Assembly: GCF_000223395.1 (NCBI RefSeq)
Contig: NC_015931.1
Location: 990,001 to 1,022,000 of the forward strand
Direction of reading: 5' to 3'
Length of the DNA stretch: 32,000 nucleotides
From: Pyrolobus fumarii 1A
GTDB taxonomy: Archaea > Thermoproteota > Thermoprotei_A > Sulfolobales > Pyrodictiaceae
Under the pieces are notes generated by a model. That model saw nothing but the letters and a program-made list of their open reading frames with translations. It had not been told where the DNA came from and did no database searches. The position numbers and the translations under genes were made by a program. Of the stretch, positions 1,419 to 32,000 are shown one piece after another (position 1 is the stretch's first letter; each line of letters opens with the position of its first letter).

Positions 1419-2186
1419 TTAGAACCTAGGCCTAATCTTCGTCTCGAACTCCTCCCAAGGCTCCGGGAGATCCTGGTCGGGGCCTAGGTCGCCCCTCGCG
1501 CGCAGCACCTCTCTCGCGAGTATCCAGTAGACGAGTGCGAGGCTCCTCCTACCCTTGTTGTTCACCGGGATGACAAGGTCGATATTCTCGATACGATTGT
1601 CAGTGTGCGCTAGGGCAACCACCGGGATACCCATGCGCGCAGCCTCCTCGATAGCCTGGCTGTCAGCTCTTGGGTCGGTAACCAGTATGACATCAGGCTC
1701 TAGGTACCACTCTAGCATCGGGTTCGTAAAGGTACCTGGAAGTATACGGCCGGTTAGAGCCTTGCAGCCAACATACTGGCAGAACTTGGTGACAGGCTTC
1801 TGGCCATACTGCCTGACAGACACGGCCACTATCTTCTCCGGCGGGAAGCGTGCTAGGAACTTAGCCGCAGTGCGCAGCCTCTCGTCAATCCTCCTAATAT
1901 CGAAGATATAGATGCCATCGGGCCTAACACGATACACGAACTTCCTCATGTACGCGGTGCAGATGTGAGTACCGACGTGAACACCAGCCTGGATATACAA
2001 CTCTAGAGGCACTAGAAGCTCAATCACACGCTCCTCAGCAGCCTGAGGAGCCTCCGCACGCTCCGGTGGCTGGGCCGCCGCAGCCTGCTCGGGCTGCACA
2101 GACTCTGCCTGTACGACCTCTGGCTGCTCAATTTGCTCCTCTCTACGCTCCTCCACCACCATAAACACACCCAAACCCGACCACAT
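1419..2186 (-). CDS. rps2: 30S ribosomal protein S2 (uS2) with an acidic low-complexity N-terminal extension
   Basis: The core [18 protein letters not shown]...[20 protein letters not shown]...[16 protein letters not shown]...[11 protein letters not shown] is canonical archaeal uS2. The true start may be the ATG at 2162 ([10 protein letters not shown]). Confidence 0.93.
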
Positions 2187-2448
2187 CCGGAAACCAGACT
2201 TAAAGCGTCATCTCGCTATATTGATACCTTAACGAGTACAACGCGATGCAAACATGTAATAATGAGCTTAAGAAATGAAAGTGAAACCACCAATTGAGAC
2301 GTGCTTTAGCTGCTGCTACAACTAGTCCTTTCGCTTTAATTCAGTTCCTATAAACTTTCTAAGCATATACTTAGTTTTTCAATAGCTACTAAACTACCTG
2401 CTAAAACTTAAATAATACATTGTTGATAGTGATATATACATAGGTGTA

Positions 2449-3348
2449 TTGCCCATGTTACAGAGAACTATGATGTTAGCGTTGATTATATTCTTTATGG
2501 CGATCTTTTTCTCCATATTAAGTATCGGTCAGACTCAGTTATTATCTTTCTATAACGTTGTAGGCAATCTAAGGGGCACCTTAAACAAGCACAAAATAAA
2601 TGTGTCATGCAAAACTATAAATGTTTCAAAATACATTAGATATGTGCAAAAAATTGTAACGGACAAATTACACGTTAATATTACTTTGGACAATATACAA
2701 GTTAAGAATTTAGGTATTGTGAATAATAGCAGCAATCTTTGTGAAATGGATACATATGTAGTCGTAAAACCGCTTGGTAAATATGAAATCGTACTTGAGA
2801 TTAATGTAACTGAAGATAATGTAACATCGTATTCAATAGCGTTTAAACCAAATATAACACATCTAGAGAAGATAAGCAAAGAGGTTAACAGTATTTCAAA
2901 AATGGTAAAGAAGCAGCTAATAAATAGTAAATACGTACGCGAACTTCTTCAGAGAATTAATGTATTAAGTTGTATTCCTAAAGATATAAGAAAGCATATA
3001 ACCATAGACGAGATCGTAGATGCCATAATCCACGAAGCGAAGAAAGGTTCAATTAGCTTTAATCTCTTTATGCGTGGTAAGAATGTTGGTTCCGTAGCAT
3101 CATATGCAATAATGACTGTGTTTGAGAAAATTGTAGTAAACGGCAATATCTCTATAATTCCATACTATAAGTATCTTAAACTTCTTAAAACTGGGCATAA
3201 GTATGTATGTAAAGAGGAAATACACTTGCAATTTCCGTTGTACATTAACTCAAGCAGAATAGTTATTGGTTGCCCAGAGGTGGAAAGATTTCCCCTCTGC
3301 ATAGCAAATATAAGATCTAGTCCTCCTGTCATTAAAACTAGGAGGTGA
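2449..3348 (+). CDS. orphan secreted or membrane-anchored glycoprotein (299 aa)
   Basis: It has an N-terminal signal anchor (MMLALIIFFMAIFFSILSIG) and about 10 N-x-S/T sequons (NVS x2, NIT x2, NNS, NSS x2, NVT x2, NIS). The likely start is ATG 2455, preceded by AGGTG. It is a long ORF in an AT-rich, stop-rich context, which supports real coding. I recognise no family. Confidence 0.6.
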   Translation: MPMLQRTMMLALIIFFMAIFFSILSIGQTQLLSFYNVVGNLRGTLNKHKINVSCKTINVSKYIRYVQKIVTDKLHVNITLDNIQVKNLGIVNNSSNLCEMDTYVVVKPLGKYEIVLEINVTEDNVTSYSIAFKPNITHLEKISKEVNSISKMVKKQLINSKYVRELLQRINVLSCIPKDIRKHITIDEIVDAIIHEAKKGSISFNLFMRGKNVGSVASYAIMTVFEKIVVNGNISIIPYYKYLKLLKTGHKYVCKEEIHLQFPLYINSSRIVIGCPEVERFPLCIANIRSSPPVIKTRR

Positions 3349-3378
3349 AAGTATGAGAAAAGAAACATCTTAATACTT

Positions 3379-4158
3379 GTGATCCTTATGTTATTACTTT
3401 GGCCTAGGTACATTTTTAGCGTATATGCAGCACAGTATATTACAGCAAATTGGGCAGGATATGTATTCTACAGTAAATCTGACTCTGGGTACGCGCCGAT
3501 ATACTTAGCGAGCGGCTACAGTATCGTCACACCTGTCTTTCTGCCCAATGTATCAGTTTACCCAGATGCTGGTATTGGAGTATCGGTATGGGTAGGAATA
3601 TCTAATGCCATAGGAGGCTCACAAATTGAGCTTGTGCAAGGCGGCTGGGCAGCATTTTACTTTCCAAATATAAATAATTTTGTGTATTTTACCTGGTACG
3701 AGTTTTATCCTAGTGAGCCCATGATACCAATTAAGTTGGTGACAATCTACGATACAGTATACATGTGGATATATGTATACAAAGATAGTAGTACAGGAGA
3801 AGACAACGGTATGATTTGCATATGGGTTCCGGATTGGTTGTATTCTATATGCAAGTATAAAACATTATCTGTACCATTGCAGGAAATGATATACGCTGAC
3901 TTTATACTTGAAACACCGTATAATTCAACGGCTAGCGATTATATGGTGCTACCAGTTTTCAGCAACTATCGTGGAATAACATTAGGAAACGTTACTGTCA
4001 CCTTCACTAATAGTACAACATTTTACGGCAGTTGGTTTATAGTTAATGACTCTTATCATAGCATAATCCTAGAACAAGGTAACGTGATAAATGCATATGC
4101 AGTATATGAAACAAATTATGAGCGTATAGTTTTCGTGTACGTATCTAGCGAGAGGTAG
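3379..4158 (+). CDS. glutamic peptidase (family G1, eqolisin / Pfam Peptidase_A4) homologue, secreted
   Basis: A signal peptide (ILMLLLWPRYIFSVYA) is followed by G1 signature blocks in the correct order. The blocks are NWAGY, SVWVGI...IELVQGG (catalytic Gln context, Q87), TWYEFYP, ADFILET (catalytic Glu context, E178), LPVF...ITLGNVTVTF and IILEQG...VFVYV. They parallel NWAG / WVGIDG..LQTG / WYEWYP / EWIVED / FG.VTF in scytalidoglutamic peptidase. The alternative start is ATG 3388. Confidence 0.7.
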   Translation: MILMLLLWPRYIFSVYAAQYITANWAGYVFYSKSDSGYAPIYLASGYSIVTPVFLPNVSVYPDAGIGVSVWVGISNAIGGSQIELVQGGWAAFYFPNINNFVYFTWYEFYPSEPMIPIKLVTIYDTVYMWIYVYKDSSTGEDNGMICIWVPDWLYSICKYKTLSVPLQEMIYADFILETPYNSTASDYMVLPVFSNYRGITLGNVTVTFTNSTTFYGSWFIVNDSYHSIILEQGNVINAYAVYETNYERIVFVYVSSER

Positions 4159-4320
4159 AATTGCATTAAGATTTTAAACAGTTGTAAAATAGACCTTGAA
4201 CGAATATAAAAATGCATAATACAAAACACTCTTATTTTTCAAATTGCGTAAATTCGTATGTAGTATTATCTGAGTATATAATTTAATAGTAAAGAACGTT
4301 CGATAAGTTGATTATAAAAG

Positions 4321-5283
4321 GTGATTCGTGTGTTCCTCCTAGGCAGTGAATTGTTAATTTTCTATAACCGATTGTGCCTATGCAGGGTCGTCCTTATGCT
4401 TCTTCGTGTTAATCCTAGTCCCTATACGTTAGCAGGTTTACAAGCGAATCTAGATGAAGCTGTTTTCGTTGTACTTGGTCTACCTTTGGAAGCAACGTCC
4501 ACGCTAAGGCCTGGTTCGAGACTGGCGCCCCTGGCGATACGCGAAGCGTCACTCTACGTTAGCCTATGGTCCGAGCGTGTTGAGAGGAGTGTGGCTCTTG
4601 TACCGGTGCATGACGCTGGCGATGCGGTCATAGAGGCGAGTGTAAGAGACACGTTGGATAGTGTGGCAGAGCTTGTCGAGATGCTAGTGTCGCGGGGGAA
4701 ACGTGTCATTCTCGTTGGAGGCGAGCATACGATAACACTCAGTGTGGTAAAGGCTATGGTTAGGCGGGCGCGCAACCCGCTCCTAATAGTCTTTGACGCG
4801 CACCTAGACATGAGGGAGGTGCATCAAGGGGCTCACTTAGCGCACTCTACAGTGACGTTACGCGCGGCTGAGCAACTTGGAGGACAGAAAGTTGTTGTGA
4901 TTGGCGCGAGAGCCCTATCTGAGCGCGAGTTGGAGAGGGCGAAAAGACTCGGTGTCCGCGTTATACGTGCGAGAGAGTTCGAGATGAGCCATATACAGAG
5001 GCTTGCGAGGGAAGTAGAGAACGTAGATTGGCTTCACATAAGCATTGACATAGACGCTCTGGATCCCATCTTTGCACCCGGCGCTACGACCCCGGAGCCG
5101 GAGGGCCTAACACCAACACAGCTTTACGATGCTATACACGAGCTAGCTGGTAATGCGCGCTTCGCTACACTAGACTTAACCGAGTACACGCCGCTCTACG
5201 ACCCAACAAGGATAACCGCGGTATATGCTGCAAAAGCGGTCATAGAGTATATCGCGGCGCAGGCCAGGACACTCTCTCTATAG
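4321..5283 (+). CDS. speB: agmatinase (arginase/ureohydrolase family)
   Basis: The Mn-binding motifs of the ureohydrolase family are present: GGEHTITL, FDAHLDMRE, SIDIDALDPIFAPGATTPEPEGL. The probable true start is ATG 4396 (MLLRVNPSPY), because the first 25 codons lie in the AT-rich spacer. Confidence 0.85.
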   Translation: MIRVFLLGSELLIFYNRLCLCRVVLMLLRVNPSPYTLAGLQANLDEAVFVVLGLPLEATSTLRPGSRLAPLAIREASLYVSLWSERVERSVALVPVHDAGDAVIEASVRDTLDSVAELVEMLVSRGKRVILVGGEHTITLSVVKAMVRRARNPLLIVFDAHLDMREVHQGAHLAHSTVTLRAAEQLGGQKVVVIGARALSERELERAKRLGVRVIRAREFEMSHIQRLAREVENVDWLHISIDIDALDPIFAPGATTPEPEGLTPTQLYDAIHELAGNARFATLDLTEYTPLYDPTRITAVYAAKAVIEYIAAQARTLSL

Positions 5284-5416
5284 CAACAAGTAGCGCAGTA
5301 GGGGGAGAGGCGGCAAGGTGTGATAGTGTAGCTTGTGAAAACAATCTTGCTGTGTAGGGGGACCGTGGTAATCTTCCAGGATGCGAGTTGTGCGAAGAAA
5401 CGGGTGAGCTGGTTGT

Positions 5417-5617
5417 TTAGACGAAGCGGCGGAAGCGTATCACCTCGTATATGAGGGGCACGTGGGCTAGCAGCATCCTCCTGCAACAGTAGCGCTTGAT
5501 GCCAAGCTCGTCTAGAACCTTCTTGGGGTCCTCGCCGTTCTGAACTCGCTTGTGAAACTCTTCCCAGTACTGGGCTAGGGGGGCGCCACACGTCCAACAG
5601 CGGACAGGGATTATCAA
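5417..5617 (-). CDS. rpoN: DNA-directed RNA polymerase subunit N (Rpo10)
   Basis: The sequence MIIPVRCWTCGAPLAQYWEEF...LGIKRYCCRRMLLAHV shows the canonical Rpo10 zinc motif and length (66 aa). It starts 7 nt downstream of the rps9 stop. Confidence 0.95.
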   Translation of the reverse strand: MIIPVRCWTCGAPLAQYWEEFHKRVQNGEDPKKVLDELGIKRYCCRRMLLAHVPLIYEVIRFRRFV

Positions 5618-5624
5618 GCTCGGT

Positions 5625-6059
5625 TCACCTGTAGCTCTTCTGCCATCTCCTACGTGCGCTCCTCCTCATAGGCTTCTCGGGCTCAGTCTGCCTCGGGTCG
5701 CCAGCTATCATGCTCCTATCGTACTCCTCGAATATCTCGCGCAGCTCCTGACTACCTGTGAACTCTACTAGGCCCCTCGCGATAGCCATGCGCACCGCGT
5801 CGGCCTGGGCCATGATGCCACCTCCCCTCACATTGACCTTAATGTCGACCTTGCTCCAGATGTCCTTACCAGCTAGGAGCAGAGGCTCCATCATCTTCCA
5901 GCGCGCCATCTCTATGGGCCATAGCTCGAGCGGCACACCGTTTATCCAGACGCGGCCCTTGCCAGGCTTAATGACAGCGCGAGCTATCGCAGTCTTCCTC
6001 TTACCAGTCGCGATTACAATACGGACGGTCGGCTTTTGTTGAGCAGCCTGAGCGCTCAC
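5625..6059 (-). CDS. rps9: 30S ribosomal protein S9 (uS9)
   Basis: GKRKTAIARAVIKPGKGRVWINGVPLE...VNVRGGGIMAQADAVRMAIARGLV...DPRQTEPEKPMRRSARRRWQKSYR is canonical uS9. Its GTG start overlaps the rpl13 TGA stop (GTGA, 6056-6059). Confidence 0.95.
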   Translation of the reverse strand: MSAQAAQQKPTVRIVIATGKRKTAIARAVIKPGKGRVWINGVPLELWPIEMARWKMMEPLLLAGKDIWSKVDIKVNVRGGGIMAQADAVRMAIARGLVEFTGSQELREIFEEYDRSMIAGDPRQTEPEKPMRRSARRRWQKSYR

Positions 6060-6547
6060 TTGCTAACCACCCCCCTCCAGCCCATCTCGCGCGCAATAAC
6101 CTCCAGCCTTACATACTTGTGGCCCAACCTGGACACGTGCGCGTCCATGAGCATCTCGCGTGGTAGCATTGGCTTGGTGCGGAGCTGCTCGGGGAACCCT
6201 ATCCACGCGCGAAGCCTCGACCAGGCCTCTCTCCCCCTCCTGTTGTGCTTCGGTAGCATGCCGTACACGGTGTCCTTGAAGATGTGAGCTGGTGTCCTAG
6301 CCCTCCTTACACCAGTGCGGTACGGGTTGTGTAGCGTCTTGACACCGAATAGCTTCTTGTAGGCGAGTATCACCTTGGTCGGGTCGCCGCTAACAACAAC
6401 CTTCTCGACATTGACGACGTGCACGCGGAAGCCCATCAGCAGTAGCTGTGCGACCTTGCTGGCCAGCCTGCCGAGTACCAAATCTGTGCCGTCAATCACG
6501 ATCTCGCGCGGTATAGTGAAGGGTGCCTCCCCCGCCATGACGTTCAC
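6056..6547 (-). CDS. rpl13: 50S ribosomal protein L13 (uL13)
   Basis: IDGTDLVLGRLASKVAQLLLMGFRVHVVNVEKVVVSG...GMLPKHNRRGREAWSRLRAW is canonical uL13. It starts 3 nt after the rpl18e stop. Confidence 0.95.
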   Translation of the reverse strand: MNVMAGEAPFTIPREIVIDGTDLVLGRLASKVAQLLLMGFRVHVVNVEKVVVSGDPTKVILAYKKLFGVKTLHNPYRTGVRRARTPAHIFKDTVYGMLPKHNRRGREAWSRLRAWIGFPEQLRTKPMLPREMLMDAHVSRLGHKYVRLEVIAREMGWRGVVSK

Positions 6548-6550
6548 ACC

Positions 6551-6913
6551 TCACACGATTATCTTCACGCGCGAACCGCGCGGGTTCTCCTCAATAAGCT
6601 GTAGTATGTGTATAGCTCTACCCCCGGCCTTCCTAATCTTCTCCAGCGCCTGCTCGCTAAAGGCGACGGCGGCAACAGTAACCGGGTGGTCTAGCCTACC
6701 AGCGCCTAGAACCTTGCCAGGCACAACAACGACGTCACCCGGCTCGGTGTAGCGGTTTATCTTACTCACGTTTACTGCAACCCTCTGCCTCCTTGGCTTC
6801 TCGAGCCACTCGGCAACGGCGCGCCAAATCCTAGCCTTGTGCTGTCTAGCCGCCTTCCTTAACGCTCTTATCGTCATACGGAGGATTATGTTCGTGGGCC
6901 CGGTTCTCTTCAT
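6551..6913 (-). CDS. rpl18e: 50S ribosomal protein L18e (eL18)
   Basis: [56 protein letters not shown]...[28 protein letters not shown] is typical L18e. The track ORF extends to 7003 and overlaps rpoD, so the internal ATG at 6913 is the probable start. Confidence 0.9.
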
Positions 6914-8343: not shown

Positions 8344-9391
8344 CGGTCTTCAGTACCTCCTCGGCGTACTCCATAGTCTTGGCGTTGCCGCCGAGATCCG
8401 GAGTTAGCACCTTACCCTCCTCTACCACGCGGTACAGGGCTTTCTCTAGAGCCTCTCCCAGCATGCGATACTTCTCTCCGAAGCCTCTGTCAGCCAGCCA
8501 GCGGAGCATGAGGGAGGCAGCGTGTAGGGCAGCAGTCGGGTTGGCTACACCCTTCCCGGCGATGTCGCGTGCTGTGCCGTGCACCGGCTCGAACATCGCG
8601 TGCCTATCGCCAATGTTGGCCGAGCCGAAGAGCCCCATTGTTCCCGCTACGCCAGCAGCAACATCGCTGAGGATATCGCCGTAGAGGTTCATGGTTACAA
8701 TGACGTCTAGCCTTTCTGGTGTACGGACTATGTAGTAGCCAGCAGCGTCCACAATCACGTCGTCGTACTCCACGCGCCCCTCGTACTTCTTGGCAACCTC
8801 CTGGAACACGCGCAGATATAGGCCATCGGCAAGCTTCAATATGTTGGCCTTATGGACGAGCGAGACCCTCCTCCTACCCCAGGATAGCGCGAGGCGAAAC
8901 GCGAAATCAATCACCCTCTCAGCCGCCCTCCTCGTGGACACTTTCACTGCGAAAGCCGCGTCGCCAGTCTCCCACTCTACCTGCGAGTAGAGGCCCTCCG
9001 TGTTCTCCCTCACAATGATAATGTCGATCTTTGGGTTTAGGGCAACACGTGGATATGCGCGGAACGGGCGCAGGTTAGCATACAGTTCCAGACTCTTGCG
9101 TAGCATCACATTAACGCTCCTATAGCCAGTTGCCTTCGGGGTTTCAATAGGCCCCTTGAATATAGCGTCAACACTCTTAGCGAGATCGAGAAGATCATCC
9201 TGGTACGGCTTGCCAGTCTTCTGGTAGTAATCCCAACCCGCCTGAGCCTCGACAATCTCCATGTCGACGCCAAGCCCCTCTAGAACGTGGAGCGCCGCAT
9301 TCACAACCTCCGGGCCCACGCCATCGCCGCGAATGACGAGGATGCGTGGCTTCGCCACGATGCCACCCCAGCCGGCACCCGAGAGACACAC
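8315..9391 (-). CDS. isocitrate / homoisocitrate / 3-isopropylmalate dehydrogenase family enzyme
   Basis: Family signatures are present: ILVIRGDGVGPEV, YRSVNVMLRKSLELYANLRP, IIVRENTEGLY, NLYGDILSDVAAGVAGTMGLFGSANIG and FEPVHGTARDIAGKGVANP. Substrate specificity cannot be assigned by eye. The likely start is GTG 9358 (VAKPRILVI). Confidence 0.88.
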   Translation of the reverse strand: MCLSGAGWGGIVAKPRILVIRGDGVGPEVVNAALHVLEGLGVDMEIVEAQAGWDYYQKTGKPYQDDLLDLAKSVDAIFKGPIETPKATGYRSVNVMLRKSLELYANLRPFRAYPRVALNPKIDIIIVRENTEGLYSQVEWETGDAAFAVKVSTRRAAERVIDFAFRLALSWGRRRVSLVHKANILKLADGLYLRVFQEVAKKYEGRVEYDDVIVDAAGYYIVRTPERLDVIVTMNLYGDILSDVAAGVAGTMGLFGSANIGDRHAMFEPVHGTARDIAGKGVANPTAALHAASLMLRWLADRGFGEKYRMLGEALEKALYRVVEEGKVLTPDLGGNAKTMEYAEEVLKTAKAIVEQGG

Positions 9392-9394
9392 GGT

Positions 9395-10087
9395 TTAAGC
9401 AGAGCCCTTCTCTTCCAACCGAGCATCCTCAATAACATACTGGTAGTGGTCGGGCGCCACTCTCACAACCCTACCCTTTACTACGAGTCTCTTACGGAAC
9501 AACGGCGCGTCGAGCACGAGCGTCTCGGCCTCGCCACCCTCAAACGCGGGGTTGAAGCCGTAGATGCGAGCCCTCCGGATTATATCCTCGACAATCTCGC
9601 GTGTCACTGGTTTACCCAGATACTCCGGTGGTAGGCCGTAAGCCTGGACGCTGGTCAGTATGAAGACAAATCCGTCTTCGACCAGCCACCTCATGTACTC
9701 CGCTTGGTCTACACCCCAGATGGGCGTTATGACCTCGAGTCCAGCTTCATAAGCGGCTGTTGCGAACCTAAGCCTCTGATAGTCACTTGCAGTGGCACCT
9801 GCCACAACAACACTACAGCCACACTCTCTCCTAGCCCTGCGAAAAGCCTCAACGGTATCAGCATACTCATCGCCAGTGACCTCGTGGTACAGCACGGGTA
9901 TACCCATAGCCTCACTGTGAAGCCTAACGAGATCGACGTTAGGATAATGGAAGAGCATGGAGTCCCAGCCGCGGGCACGGAAAGTGATAAGGCACGCTGG
10001 TTCAAGTCCATGCATCACAGCCCAGTGTAGCGAGTAACAACTATCCTTGCCCCCCGTGTACATCGCGCAGAACTTGATACTCTTCAA
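9395..10087 (-). CDS. PP-loop ATPase of the MJ0570/DUF71 family (diphthine-ammonia ligase Dph6-like)
   Basis: The N-terminal FCAMYTGGKDSCYSLHWAV matches the SGGKDS PP-loop of MJ0570-type ATP pyrophosphatases. The size of 230 aa is consistent with the archaeal single-domain form. Confidence 0.8.
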   Translation of the reverse strand: MKSIKFCAMYTGGKDSCYSLHWAVMHGLEPACLITFRARGWDSMLFHYPNVDLVRLHSEAMGIPVLYHEVTGDEYADTVEAFRRARRECGCSVVVAGATASDYQRLRFATAAYEAGLEVITPIWGVDQAEYMRWLVEDGFVFILTSVQAYGLPPEYLGKPVTREIVEDIIRRARIYGFNPAFEGGEAETLVLDAPLFRKRLVVKGRVVRVAPDHYQYVIEDARLEEKGSA

Positions 10088-16997: not shown

Positions 16998-17175
16998 CCC
17001 GCCGTAGCTCAGCGGTAGAGCGCCCGGCTGTAGGGGGGAACCCGCATCCCCCTAACCCCCCACGCGCCCAACCGGCGGCGAGAAGCCGCCGGGGATGAGG
17101 GCGCGGCGGCAAAGGGGGATGCGGGGCCGGGCAGAAACCGGGAGGTCCGGGGTTCGAATCCCCGCGGCGGGACCA
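16998..17175 (+). tRNA. tRNA-Tyr (anticodon GUA) with a 103-nt intron at the canonical 37/38 position
   Basis: I folded the cloverleaf by hand. Acceptor CCCGCCG (16998-17004) pairs with CGGCGGG (17165-17171), giving the C1:G72 pair typical of archaeal tRNA-Tyr. The D arm is GCTC-AGCGGTA-GAGC. The anticodon stem is CCCGG (17023-27) with CCGGG (17138-42), and the loop is CT-GTA-G|intron|A. The variable region is AGGTC, the T arm is CGGGG-TTCGAAT-CCCCG, the discriminator is A, and CCA is encoded at 17173-17175. Confidence 0.9.
17034..17136 (+). other. tRNA intron, highly structured and GC-rich
   Basis: It contains three perfect helices: 17041-17052 with 17114-17125 (12 bp), 17062-17068 with 17099-17105 (7 bp), and 17072-17079 with 17085-17092 (8 bp, loop GAGAA). 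A 4-bp helix CUGU/GCAG sits between bulges AGG and AAA, consistent with a bulge-helix-bulge splice motif. Confidence 0.8.
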
Positions 17176-31433: not shown

Positions 31434-31690
31434 CGCGAAGCTCGTCCAAAAGGCCAGGCTCTTCACCCACTCTCAAAACTATCTTTAAATATCCAGGTCT
31501 GTGCCCTACCTTAGCATCTCGTGTTGTACGCAATGCCCACTGTACTAAGAGTGTGTTACATTCCTTCTATAGCTCCACATGGTGTTTTTAGGCTATGCGA
31601 AGAAAACATCACAATTATTCGATTGACGACATTTATTTATATCATGAGTATTTTAAATTACGAAAACGGAATAGTTGAGGGTAATCAATC

Positions 31691-32000
31691 ATGAGTAATG
31701 ATGGTTTTAAATTAACGCGAAGAGAGTTTCTGAAGCTAACCGCTGCGGCCAGTGCTGCTGTATCGGTTGGCGTGGCAGTCCCAAGAATCCCTAGTGTGGC
31801 TGAGCTGGAGAAAGCCGAGTTAGCTGTAGGCGACGGCATGATTCGTGAAGTAACTACAGCGTGCCTCATATGCATGCAAAGGTGTCCCATTGCTGTAGGC
31901 GTTGATAGCGAGGGCAAGATCCGGTACGTGAGATACCTCACAATGGAGGGTTATGACGAGTTCTTTGCGTGTTGTGGTAGGCCGCAGCTCATTTTCGAAC
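31691..32000 (+). CDS. Tat-exported molybdopterin oxidoreductase catalytic subunit, 5' fragment (runs off the window)
   Basis: I translated this by hand from ATG 31691, since it is absent from the ORF track because it has no stop. The product is MSNDGFKLTRREFLKLTAAASAAVSVGV... It has a twin-arginine signal (RREFLK), then an N-terminal Fe-S Cys motif (CLICMQRC...CCGR) typical of DMSO-reductase-family enzymes. There are no stops to position 32000. Confidence 0.7.
   Translation, partial: MSNDGFKLTRREFLKLTAAASAAVSVGVAVPRIPSVAELEKAELAVGDGMIREVTTACLICMQRCPIAVGVDSEGKIRYVRYLTMEGYDEFFACCGRPQLIFE

Follow-up and report, generated by a model that had tools for sequence, protein, structure and literature searches.

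An AT-rich two-gene islet beside rps2 in Pyrolobus fumarii 1A, probably acquired from a low-GC archaeon

How did a short AT-rich tract with two hypothetical genes come to lie beside the gene of ribosomal protein S2 (rps2) in the hyperthermophilic archaeon Pyrolobus fumarii 1A? The locus was analyzed computationally in a window of 32 kb, that is, the whole stretch of P. fumarii 1A DNA under study, in which the tract occupies positions 2191–4488, between rps2 and an agmatinase gene. Its source was probably a low-GC archaeon, as yet unsampled, from which the lineage of P. fumarii 1A would have acquired it horizontally by recombination anchored in agmatinase. The donor probably had a guanine-plus-cytosine (G+C) content of roughly 0.33–0.38 and belonged to the hydrothermal-vent gene pool. 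The tract, its two open reading frames (ORF1 and ORF2) and their neighbors are as follows.

2191–4488, no strand: AT-rich, probably foreign segment of 2.30 kb with a G+C content of 0.346, delimited by a maximum-likelihood fit of two change points
2449/2455–3348, plus strand: ORF1, 297 amino acids from the ATG at 2455 (2455–3348)
3379–4158, plus strand: ORF2, the hypothetical protein Pyrfu_1051, annotated from the ATG at 3388; ORF1 and ORF2 are the only ORFs of at least 110 amino acids in the tract
4159–4395, plus strand: AT-rich spacer, G+C 0.30
1419–2162, minus strand: rps2 (Pfam PF00318), the native left flank
4396–5283, plus strand: agmatinase gene (speB-type), the right flank (PF00491, expectation value (E) 1e-64; TIGR01230 above its cut-off)
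5417–5617, minus strand: rpoN (PF01194), the last gene of the rpoD-rpl18e-rpl13-rps9-rpoN string

What sets the tract apart is first of all its composition. In the two-change-point likelihood fit, G+C outside 2191–4488 was 0.578 and 0.563, and 300-nucleotide (nt) windows were observed to fall to 0.29–0.43 at about 2200–4450, with 0.53–0.60 on either side. The tract lies 21 standard deviations under the remaining window (z = −21), and it alone drops below 0.458, the lowest G+C among the other 500-nt windows of the 32 kb. G+C at third codon positions (GC3) is 0.33 in ORF1 and 0.37 in ORF2, compared with 0.58–0.78 in the remaining 30 ORFs of the window, and both spacers of the tract have a G+C content of 0.30–0.33. 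Asparagine makes up 7.7% of ORF1, 5.8% of ORF2 and 2.2% of the other window genes, and isoleucine 13.4%, 9.7% and 6.0%, respectively; lysine accounts for 9.4% of ORF1 and tyrosine for 11.2% of ORF2. The stop-free runs of 300 and 260 codons are far longer than those obtained by shuffling this AT-rich DNA (83 codons on average and 150 at most), indicating that ORF1 and ORF2 are genuine coding sequences. An earlier note on this DNA, here called the original prediction, had pointed out both the G+C drop and the distinct Asn/Ile/Lys/Tyr palette of two ORFs; the sliding windows, the change-point fit and the measured residue shares bear these claims out. The AT dips found elsewhere in the 32 kb are short and promoter-sized. 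One such intergenic dip of about 250 bp, at 31500–31750 (G+C 0.33–0.39), reveals AT-richness in native spacers of promoter size as well; a coding islet of 2.3 kb is a different matter.

Is the tract shared with relatives? Synteny, a comparison also proposed in the original prediction, was examined at 21 loci encoding rps2 relatives. At 18 of them, from Pyrodictiaceae and other Desulfurococcales, rps2 is the next gene after the rpoD-rpl18e-rpl13-rps9-rpoN string, 10–200 bp away, and nothing comparable to the islet was found at the rpoN-rps2 position. An agmatinase gene between rpoN and rps2 was observed only in P. fumarii and in L001 (among 20 archaeal loci), the latter being the closest locus, with an rps2 product 85% identical to that of P. 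fumarii and a G+C content of 0.60. The agmatinase gene of L001 has the same orientation as that of the window, its start codon lies 68 bp from that of rps2, and DNA similarity between the window and L001 stops on the rps2 side at about 2186. Since L001 contains agmatinase and only a 68-bp spacer, the 2.3-kb tract is lineage-specific; as far as relatives have been sampled, it is an insertion into, or a replacement of, a short divergent promoter region in the P. fumarii lineage. The synteny thus favors a foreign origin and goes against the refuting condition named in the original prediction, that close relatives carry the same segment at this locus. It also refines the placement between rps2 and rpoN given in the original prediction: the islet lies precisely between rps2 and agmatinase, and the slot that agmatinase takes up next to rpoN exists in this lineage and L001 only.

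The right border of the tract falls inside a conserved gene.

4396–4494, plus strand: agmatinase codons 1–33, with AT-rich codon choice; right junction of the probably foreign tract

GC3 of agmatinase was found to be 0.18 in codons 1–33 and 0.57 in the remaining 262 codons, with the step at nt 4495 (permutation p ~0.0015); in the L001 agmatinase, the same two parts have values of 0.70 and 0.73. None of the 32 other ORFs of the window has a GC3 below 0.37 in its first 30 codons. A general 5′ ramp of AT-rich codons was considered for agmatinase and rejected, such a ramp being absent from the other ORFs of the window and from the L001 gene. The encoded protein is conserved across the step, with 14 of 32 residues identical to L001 over the first 33 residues and 114 of 250 over the rest, and residues 1–33 contain the first conserved strand of the arginase fold, as judged from the Pfam and TIGR01230 matches. 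These codons being AT-rich and yet conserved, the AT-rich DNA appears to have arrived with a homologous 5′ part of agmatinase of its own. The extent of 2190–4395 originally proposed for the islet is therefore accurate at its left end and about 95 nt short at its right end, where the tract enters agmatinase codons 1–33; the accompanying remark that G+C recovers inside agmatinase fits the GC3 change point.

How might such a tract have entered? No integrase or transposase was found in the tract or at its borders, and ORF1 and ORF2 match no recombinase family. Repeats flanking the tract are of chance size only, with none at its borders, and no transfer RNA (tRNA) gene was detected within 12 kb of the tract, the nearest candidate being 12.5 kb away. 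These ORF, tRNA and repeat scans agree with the original prediction, which had reported the same three features as lacking. At 16998–17175, in a local G+C peak, an intron-aware ARAGORN search gives a candidate gene for tRNA-Tyr(GTA), interrupted by an intron of 103 nt; a default scan of the window returns none. The tract has no Rfam match at E <= 1 for noncoding RNA, and no similarity to defense systems was found. With neither integrase, attachment (att) site nor tRNA, and with a junction inside agmatinase, recombination anchored by agmatinase homology is the most likely route; a junction in a housekeeping gene implies that the DNA was integrated through recombination and not through the action of an integrase. 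In this scheme, incoming chromosomal DNA of a low-GC archaeon would have carried the two genes upstream of agmatinase, recombination would have occurred within agmatinase with homology as the anchor, and the left end would have been joined a short way upstream of rps2, through homology or through an illegitimate event of the sort seen in homology-facilitated illegitimate recombination. The landing site would have been the former divergent promoter region of about 70 bp between rps2 and agmatinase.

Homology-facilitated illegitimate recombination and the replacement of homologous stretches by foreign chromosomal DNA are described in naturally transformable bacteria, and inter-species chromosomal recombination is known in archaea; the process is not known from Pyrodictiaceae. 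The P. fumarii tract resembles the products of such events in the lack of site-specific machinery and in having one end in a conserved anchor gene, agmatinase, and differs in that a donor arrangement of the two genes with agmatinase was not observed here. The tract resembles small genomic islets of horizontal origin in that its G+C and codon usage are atypical, relatives lack it, and its cargo is orphan-like and shows signs of decay. Unlike usual genomic islets, it contains no integrase, tRNA target or direct repeats, comprises only two genes in 2.3 kb, and sits where a ribosomal protein gene has its promoter, with one junction inside a conserved gene.

What do the two genes encode? ORF2 is, as judged from its family alignment, a very divergent homologue of the G1 (eqolisin) glutamic peptidases that has kept the catalytic dyad. 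A word-indexed search of 5.8 billion protein clusters returned only ORF2 itself (Pyrfu_1051), and no match was found in NCBIfam, PADLOC or PHROGs; no mention of Pyrfu_1050, Pyrfu_1051 or Pyrfu_1052 was found in the literature. Exhaustive HMMER scanning of 1.84 billion representative proteins yielded 13 remote homologues (E 9e-28 to 1e-3), the best being 38% identical (E 9e-28). PF01828, that is, Peptidase_A4 or MEROPS G1, is matched by 10 of the 13 family members (best E 9e-20), and the family profile matches aspergillopepsin II (1y43_B, E 2e-12) and scytalidopepsin B (1s2b, E 3.5e-6). In the alignment, Q87, E178, W106, E108 and P111 are nearly invariant, and the profile Q and E coincide with the catalytic ILQTG and FIIED/WIVED of 1s2b and 1y43. 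Motifs recognizable by eye in ORF2 are NWAGY, WVGIS, LVQGG (Q87), WYEFYP, FILETP (E178) and LPVF (LPxF in the family), and a pairwise BLASTP comparison with a scytalidopepsin B sequence gave E 0.004. The predicted catalytic codons are located as follows.

3637–3639, plus strand: Gln87, predicted from the family alignment
3910–3912, plus strand: Glu178, predicted from the family alignment

A Gln/Glu dyad defines MEROPS G1, of which a few archaeal members are known (PMC3009609). ORF2 shares motifs and Gln/Glu spacing with the scytalidoglutamic and aspergilloglutamic peptidases, with Alicyclobacillus pepG1 and with putative members from Acidilobus, Caldivirga and Picrophilus; it is very divergent, being tied to the family through intermediates only. 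It belongs to a short subtype, in which the mature domain begins about 5 residues past the predicted signal cleavage site without a propeptide. Fungal G1 enzymes carry a propeptide, in which ORF2 differs from them, and the more distant, long-type homologues have N-terminal extensions of about 130–170 residues. A further difference from MEROPS G1 is that the short type is always paired with a separate upstream gene for a membrane-anchored partner. The host is unusual as well: P. fumarii grows at 106 °C and pH 4.0–6.5 as an obligate chemolithoautotroph that does not use, and is not stimulated by, organic compounds (PMC3156397). Peptidases of family G1 have a beta-sandwich fold of two seven-stranded antiparallel sheets, an acid pH optimum and insensitivity to pepstatin. 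If made, ORF2 would presumably act outside the cell as an acid endopeptidase, either together with the ORF1 protein or tethered or controlled by it.

The pairing became apparent in the contigs of the short-type G1 homologues, all of which contain an unannotated co-directional gene immediately upstream of the peptidase gene.

L025/L026: upstream gene of 304 amino acids, 13 nt from the peptidase gene
L029: upstream gene of more than 262 amino acids, cut by the contig end, with a gap of 6 nt
L034/L035: upstream gene of 285 amino acids, with a gap of 12 nt
L036: partial upstream gene
L030: upstream gene in a short form of 154 amino acids, with a gap of 43 nt
L032: upstream gene in two fragments, a decayed copy

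The two genes thus form a conserved, translationally coupled pair (the cassette), and at least one more GC-rich archaeal genome contains this pair in the form of an AT-rich islet. In that genome, L032, a 2.23-kb tract (4621–6851) with a G+C content of 0.41, compared with 0.54–0.57 in its host, carries the cassette, with a radical-SAM gene on one side and a CMD-domain gene on the other; this locus is unrelated to that of P. fumarii, and both cassette genes are frameshifted. In L029, the cassette lies in at least 2.6 kb with a G+C content of 0.38–0.46, beside DNA of 0.51–0.61. In L026, L030 and L034–L036, whose contigs have a G+C content of 0.32–0.38, the G+C of the cassette was found to be host-like or slightly higher, indicating that the cassette has no intrinsically low G+C. 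The closest relative of ORF2, at 40–44% identity, is encoded in L087 (1–991) and is split over three reading frames by frameshifts. A gene for tRNA-Pro(CGG) with a 38-nt intron, missed by default ARAGORN and at the Rfam gathering thresholds, lies 75 nt downstream of this copy. Homologues of the islet genes are distant and were found only in other archaeal metagenome contigs, mostly of low-GC genomes. Judging from the sample names, several of the samples that contain the cassette are metagenomes from hydrothermal vents in the deep sea, where P. fumarii also lives.

ORF1 is, according to its alignments, a member of a new, unannotated family encoded just upstream of the short-type G1 peptidase genes. 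It is co-linear in alignment with the upstream genes of the other cassette loci, and hhalign relates it to the partner family with a probability of 93% (E 2.6e-7, 144 columns). A motif in the C-terminal half, C-x-E-[QE]...P-[VL]-C, is shared within the family, and a pairwise comparison gives E 0.002 at co-linear positions. The word-indexed search of protein clusters returned only ORF1 itself, a profile search with the family recovered four members from a large protein collection, no match was found in Pfam, NCBIfam or PADLOC, and no member checked contains a Pfam domain. In PHROGs, a single non-significant match (phrog_35494, E 0.0067) was obtained. Marginal leucine-rich-repeat matches (phmmer against PDB, E ~0.01) were put down to compositional noise. 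ORF1 has a predicted hydrophobic N-terminal anchor and 10 N-x-S/T sequons, compared with 2.8 expected from its composition (p 6e-4), which together fit an extracellular glycoprotein. An AlphaFold model built from an alignment of four sequences was confident only for residues ~141–283, and Foldseek found no significant structural neighbor in PDB or BFVD (none at E < 0.03).

What the partner does can be considered only by analogy. The arrangement recalls peptidase partner and pro-region systems, such as propeptides and PepSY-type domains, in that the pair is conserved and coupled and the peptidase has no pro-region of its own; no sequence or structural similarity of ORF1 to inhibitor or foldase domains was found, so that the likeness is one of analogy. 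ORF1 might act as a tether, foldase or inhibitor of the peptidase. A trans-acting prodomain was also considered, the N-terminal domain of ORF1 resembling by eye that of long-type G1 peptidases; hhalign gave a probability of 0.4%, and the idea was rejected. It is a speculative but conceivable reading that the pair constitutes an undescribed module, in which ORF1 would serve in trans as tether, foldase or inhibitor of the G1 peptidase, and which would circulate in deep-sea-vent archaea as an AT-rich cassette of about 2.2 kb without mobility genes, enter GC-rich hyperthermophiles by recombination anchored in core genes, and usually decay.

Signs of decay are also seen in P. fumarii, at the start of ORF2.

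3341–3348, plus strand: strong Shine-Dalgarno sequence GGAGGTGA
3353–3355, plus strand: putative ancestral ATG of ORF2
3358–3361, plus strand: run of four A, the site of a proposed 1-nt loss

The present ATG at 3353 opens six codons only (MRKETS, then a stop). Adding one A to the run at 3358–3361 produces, in the frame of ORF2, MRKRNILILVILMLLLWPRYIFSVYA/AQY..., which is a canonical signal peptide resembling those of the homologues, and the restored ATG leaves a gap of 4 nt between ORF1 and ORF2, in line with the 6–13 nt in L026, L029 and L034. Three P. fumarii assemblies are identical in the 3341–3390 region. The original start of ORF2 and its coupling to the Shine-Dalgarno sequence were probably lost through a 1-nt deletion, and ORF2 may still be made from the GTG at 3379 or the ATG at 3388. 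This loss, the decayed copies of L032 and L087, and the chemolithoautotrophic life of the host point to neutral or mildly tolerated cargo; the cassette seems to drift along as a passenger and not to be adaptive.

Could the tract have another origin? It is rather unlikely that it is the remnant of an integrated virus or plasmid, from which the integrase, the att sites and the rest were later deleted so that two cargo genes were left. The strongly atypical composition and orphan-like genes are what such a remnant would show, the cassette occurs at unrelated loci in different hosts, as mobile cargo does, and in L087 a tRNA-Pro gene lies close downstream. However, comparison with viruses and plasmids, likewise proposed in the original prediction, revealed no similarity in 50,697 records of phages and archaeal viruses or in plasmids (blastn and tblastn), in IMG/VR contigs or among the folds of BFVD, the PHROGs match at E 0.0067 being all that was obtained. 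The P. fumarii tract has no integrase, repeats or nearby tRNA, and the copies of the cassette have no non-coding ends or spacers in common. Site-specific integration would moreover leave the 33 recoded, still homologous agmatinase codons unexplained. The idea of a recent acquisition of foreign DNA from a low-GC donor in the original prediction therefore stands, on composition and on the relatives; the Sulfolobales, virus or plasmid source suggested there finds no support in similarity.

It is improbable that the tract is an ancestral native segment that was lost in L001, its AT-richness being a property of these secretome genes. Synonymous sites (0.33–0.37, compared with 0.58–0.78) and spacers (0.30–0.33) are AT-rich too, which protein composition cannot explain, and the break is abrupt and lies inside agmatinase. 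GC3 should have ameliorated over a long residence, and 18 other relatives are empty at this position. Such a loss is made easier to envisage by the fact that L001 is the sole reasonably close relative and is itself divergent, and the short native intergenic regions of the genome are AT-rich as well. A bias of the family is imaginable, since the cassette is AT-richer than its host in several genomes; in some it is AT-poorer than or equal to its host, and in low-GC hosts it lies at or above host G+C.

Local AT-biased mutation, by which an easily melting tract at 106 °C would undergo cytosine deamination that spreads to adjacent synonymous sites without any recombination junction, is very improbable. 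The N-terminus of agmatinase has kept its protein sequence and only its codons are AT-shifted, as would be seen if selection filtered a mutational bias; however, the GC3 switch at codons 33/34 is step-like rather than graded, and no spill-over is seen on the rps2 side, where GC3 is 0.63 in the first 30 codons and 0.67 in the whole gene. The origin of the tract itself would also be left unexplained, and we know of no documented process of mutation by local melting. An assembly chimera or contaminant DNA, which the abrupt compositional change resembles in the manner of a mis-join, has almost no likelihood, since three separate assemblies of public P. fumarii read sets match the window at 100% identity across both junctions, the right junction lies within an intact, in-frame gene, and the genome was finished at ~1800x coverage with 1753x Illumina polishing (PMC3156397), so that an artefact of assembly is excluded.

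Several observations weigh against horizontal acquisition through agmatinase, or against the reading of the genes acquired. No donor or near-identical sequence was found in the collections searched, the closest ORF2 homologue being 40–45% identical, and the cassette was not seen beside agmatinase at any other cassette locus or at any of 50 metagenomic agmatinase loci (best relatives 36–41% identical). For the donor arrangement this is an absence of evidence, the donor being unsampled. The direction and recency of transfer are read from composition and from presence or absence in one close relative, L001, which is distant enough (agmatinases 44–46% identical) for a loss there to stay compatible with parsimony, and the compositional singularity of the tract is that seen within the 32-kb window. 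As for the genes, ORF2 alone has no Pfam match at E <= 0.1 and no PDB match at E <= 10, its single-sequence AlphaFold model is mostly beta by DSSP and unusable (mean predicted local distance difference test score, 36), and profile comparison does not relate the N-terminal domain of ORF1 to the prodomain found in long-type G1 homologues.

As a kind of event, the acquisition of the islet is genuine and fairly ordinary: a small genomic islet, obtained by horizontal transfer, with a peptidase of a known family. Noteworthy are the undescribed ORF1 partner family, the conserved two-gene module, its recurrence in L032 and in the AT-rich block of L029, and the junction within a housekeeping gene. Two "hypothetical" orphan genes can be assigned, one as a divergent glutamic peptidase and the other as the founder of a small partner family; together, the two genes enlarge the archaeal branch of peptidase family G1, which is a rare one, and hint at a two-component arrangement open to biochemical testing. 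The islet is also a clean, datable-looking example of gene flow, in which the recipient is the cultured archaeon with the greatest heat requirement, the site is a core ribosomal and RNA polymerase locus, and dedicated integration machinery apparently played no part; the agmatinase junction offers a concrete handle on chromosomal DNA exchange among vent hyperthermophiles.

How does the islet affect the promoters of its neighbors? The following regulatory elements were read from the sequence by inspection.

2199–2205, minus strand: candidate TATA box of rps2, CTTTAAG, about 40 nt upstream of the ATG
4361–4368, plus strand: candidate TATA box of agmatinase, TCTATAAC
2407–2416, plus strand: candidate promoter of ORF1, CTTAAATAAT
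2443–2446, plus strand: candidate ribosome-binding GGTG of ORF1
4235–4239, plus strand: oligo-T tract, candidate terminator of ORF1–ORF2

The likely start of rps2 is the ATG at 2162 rather than that at 2186, the L001 orthologue aligning from "MVVEE", and the shift in G+C begins 29 nt upstream of this ATG. The candidate TATA boxes of rps2 and agmatinase both lie within the AT-rich, probably imported tract. The original prediction that the rps2 promoter is embedded in foreign-looking DNA accordingly holds for the position of the candidate box; the box is AT-rich by nature, and whether the element itself is foreign cannot be told from composition. In L001, a TATA-like GCTTATAGG is found at a similar distance from the rps2 start; it is the single such element in 9934–10000, about 33 nt from the start codons of both agmatinase and rps2. 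This suggests a shared bidirectional core promoter, split by the islet in P. fumarii. Imported DNA in or beside the promoters of rps2 and agmatinase would make the locus a natural experiment in promoter replacement at an essential gene.

The flanking genes themselves show some further peculiarities. The rps2 product begins with an acidic extension (2012–2162, minus strand) that is about 50 residues long and in which Ala, Pro, Gln and Glu abound; its length differs between relatives, whose matches start at query residue 9 to 56. The agmatinase gene of L001 occupies 9091–9933 of that locus, and its product and that of P. fumarii share 44–46% identity, compared with about 80–88% for the adjacent ribosomal proteins and rpoN, and the GC3 of the native-like part of agmatinase (0.57) is the lowest among the non-islet ORFs of the window. 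The slot that agmatinase takes up may be prone to recombination or may itself have been acquired earlier. L071 (5001–10802), which represents an unrelated lineage from metagenomes, likewise has an agmatinase gene, with a product 33% identical, within ~3–5 kb of rpoN and rps2.

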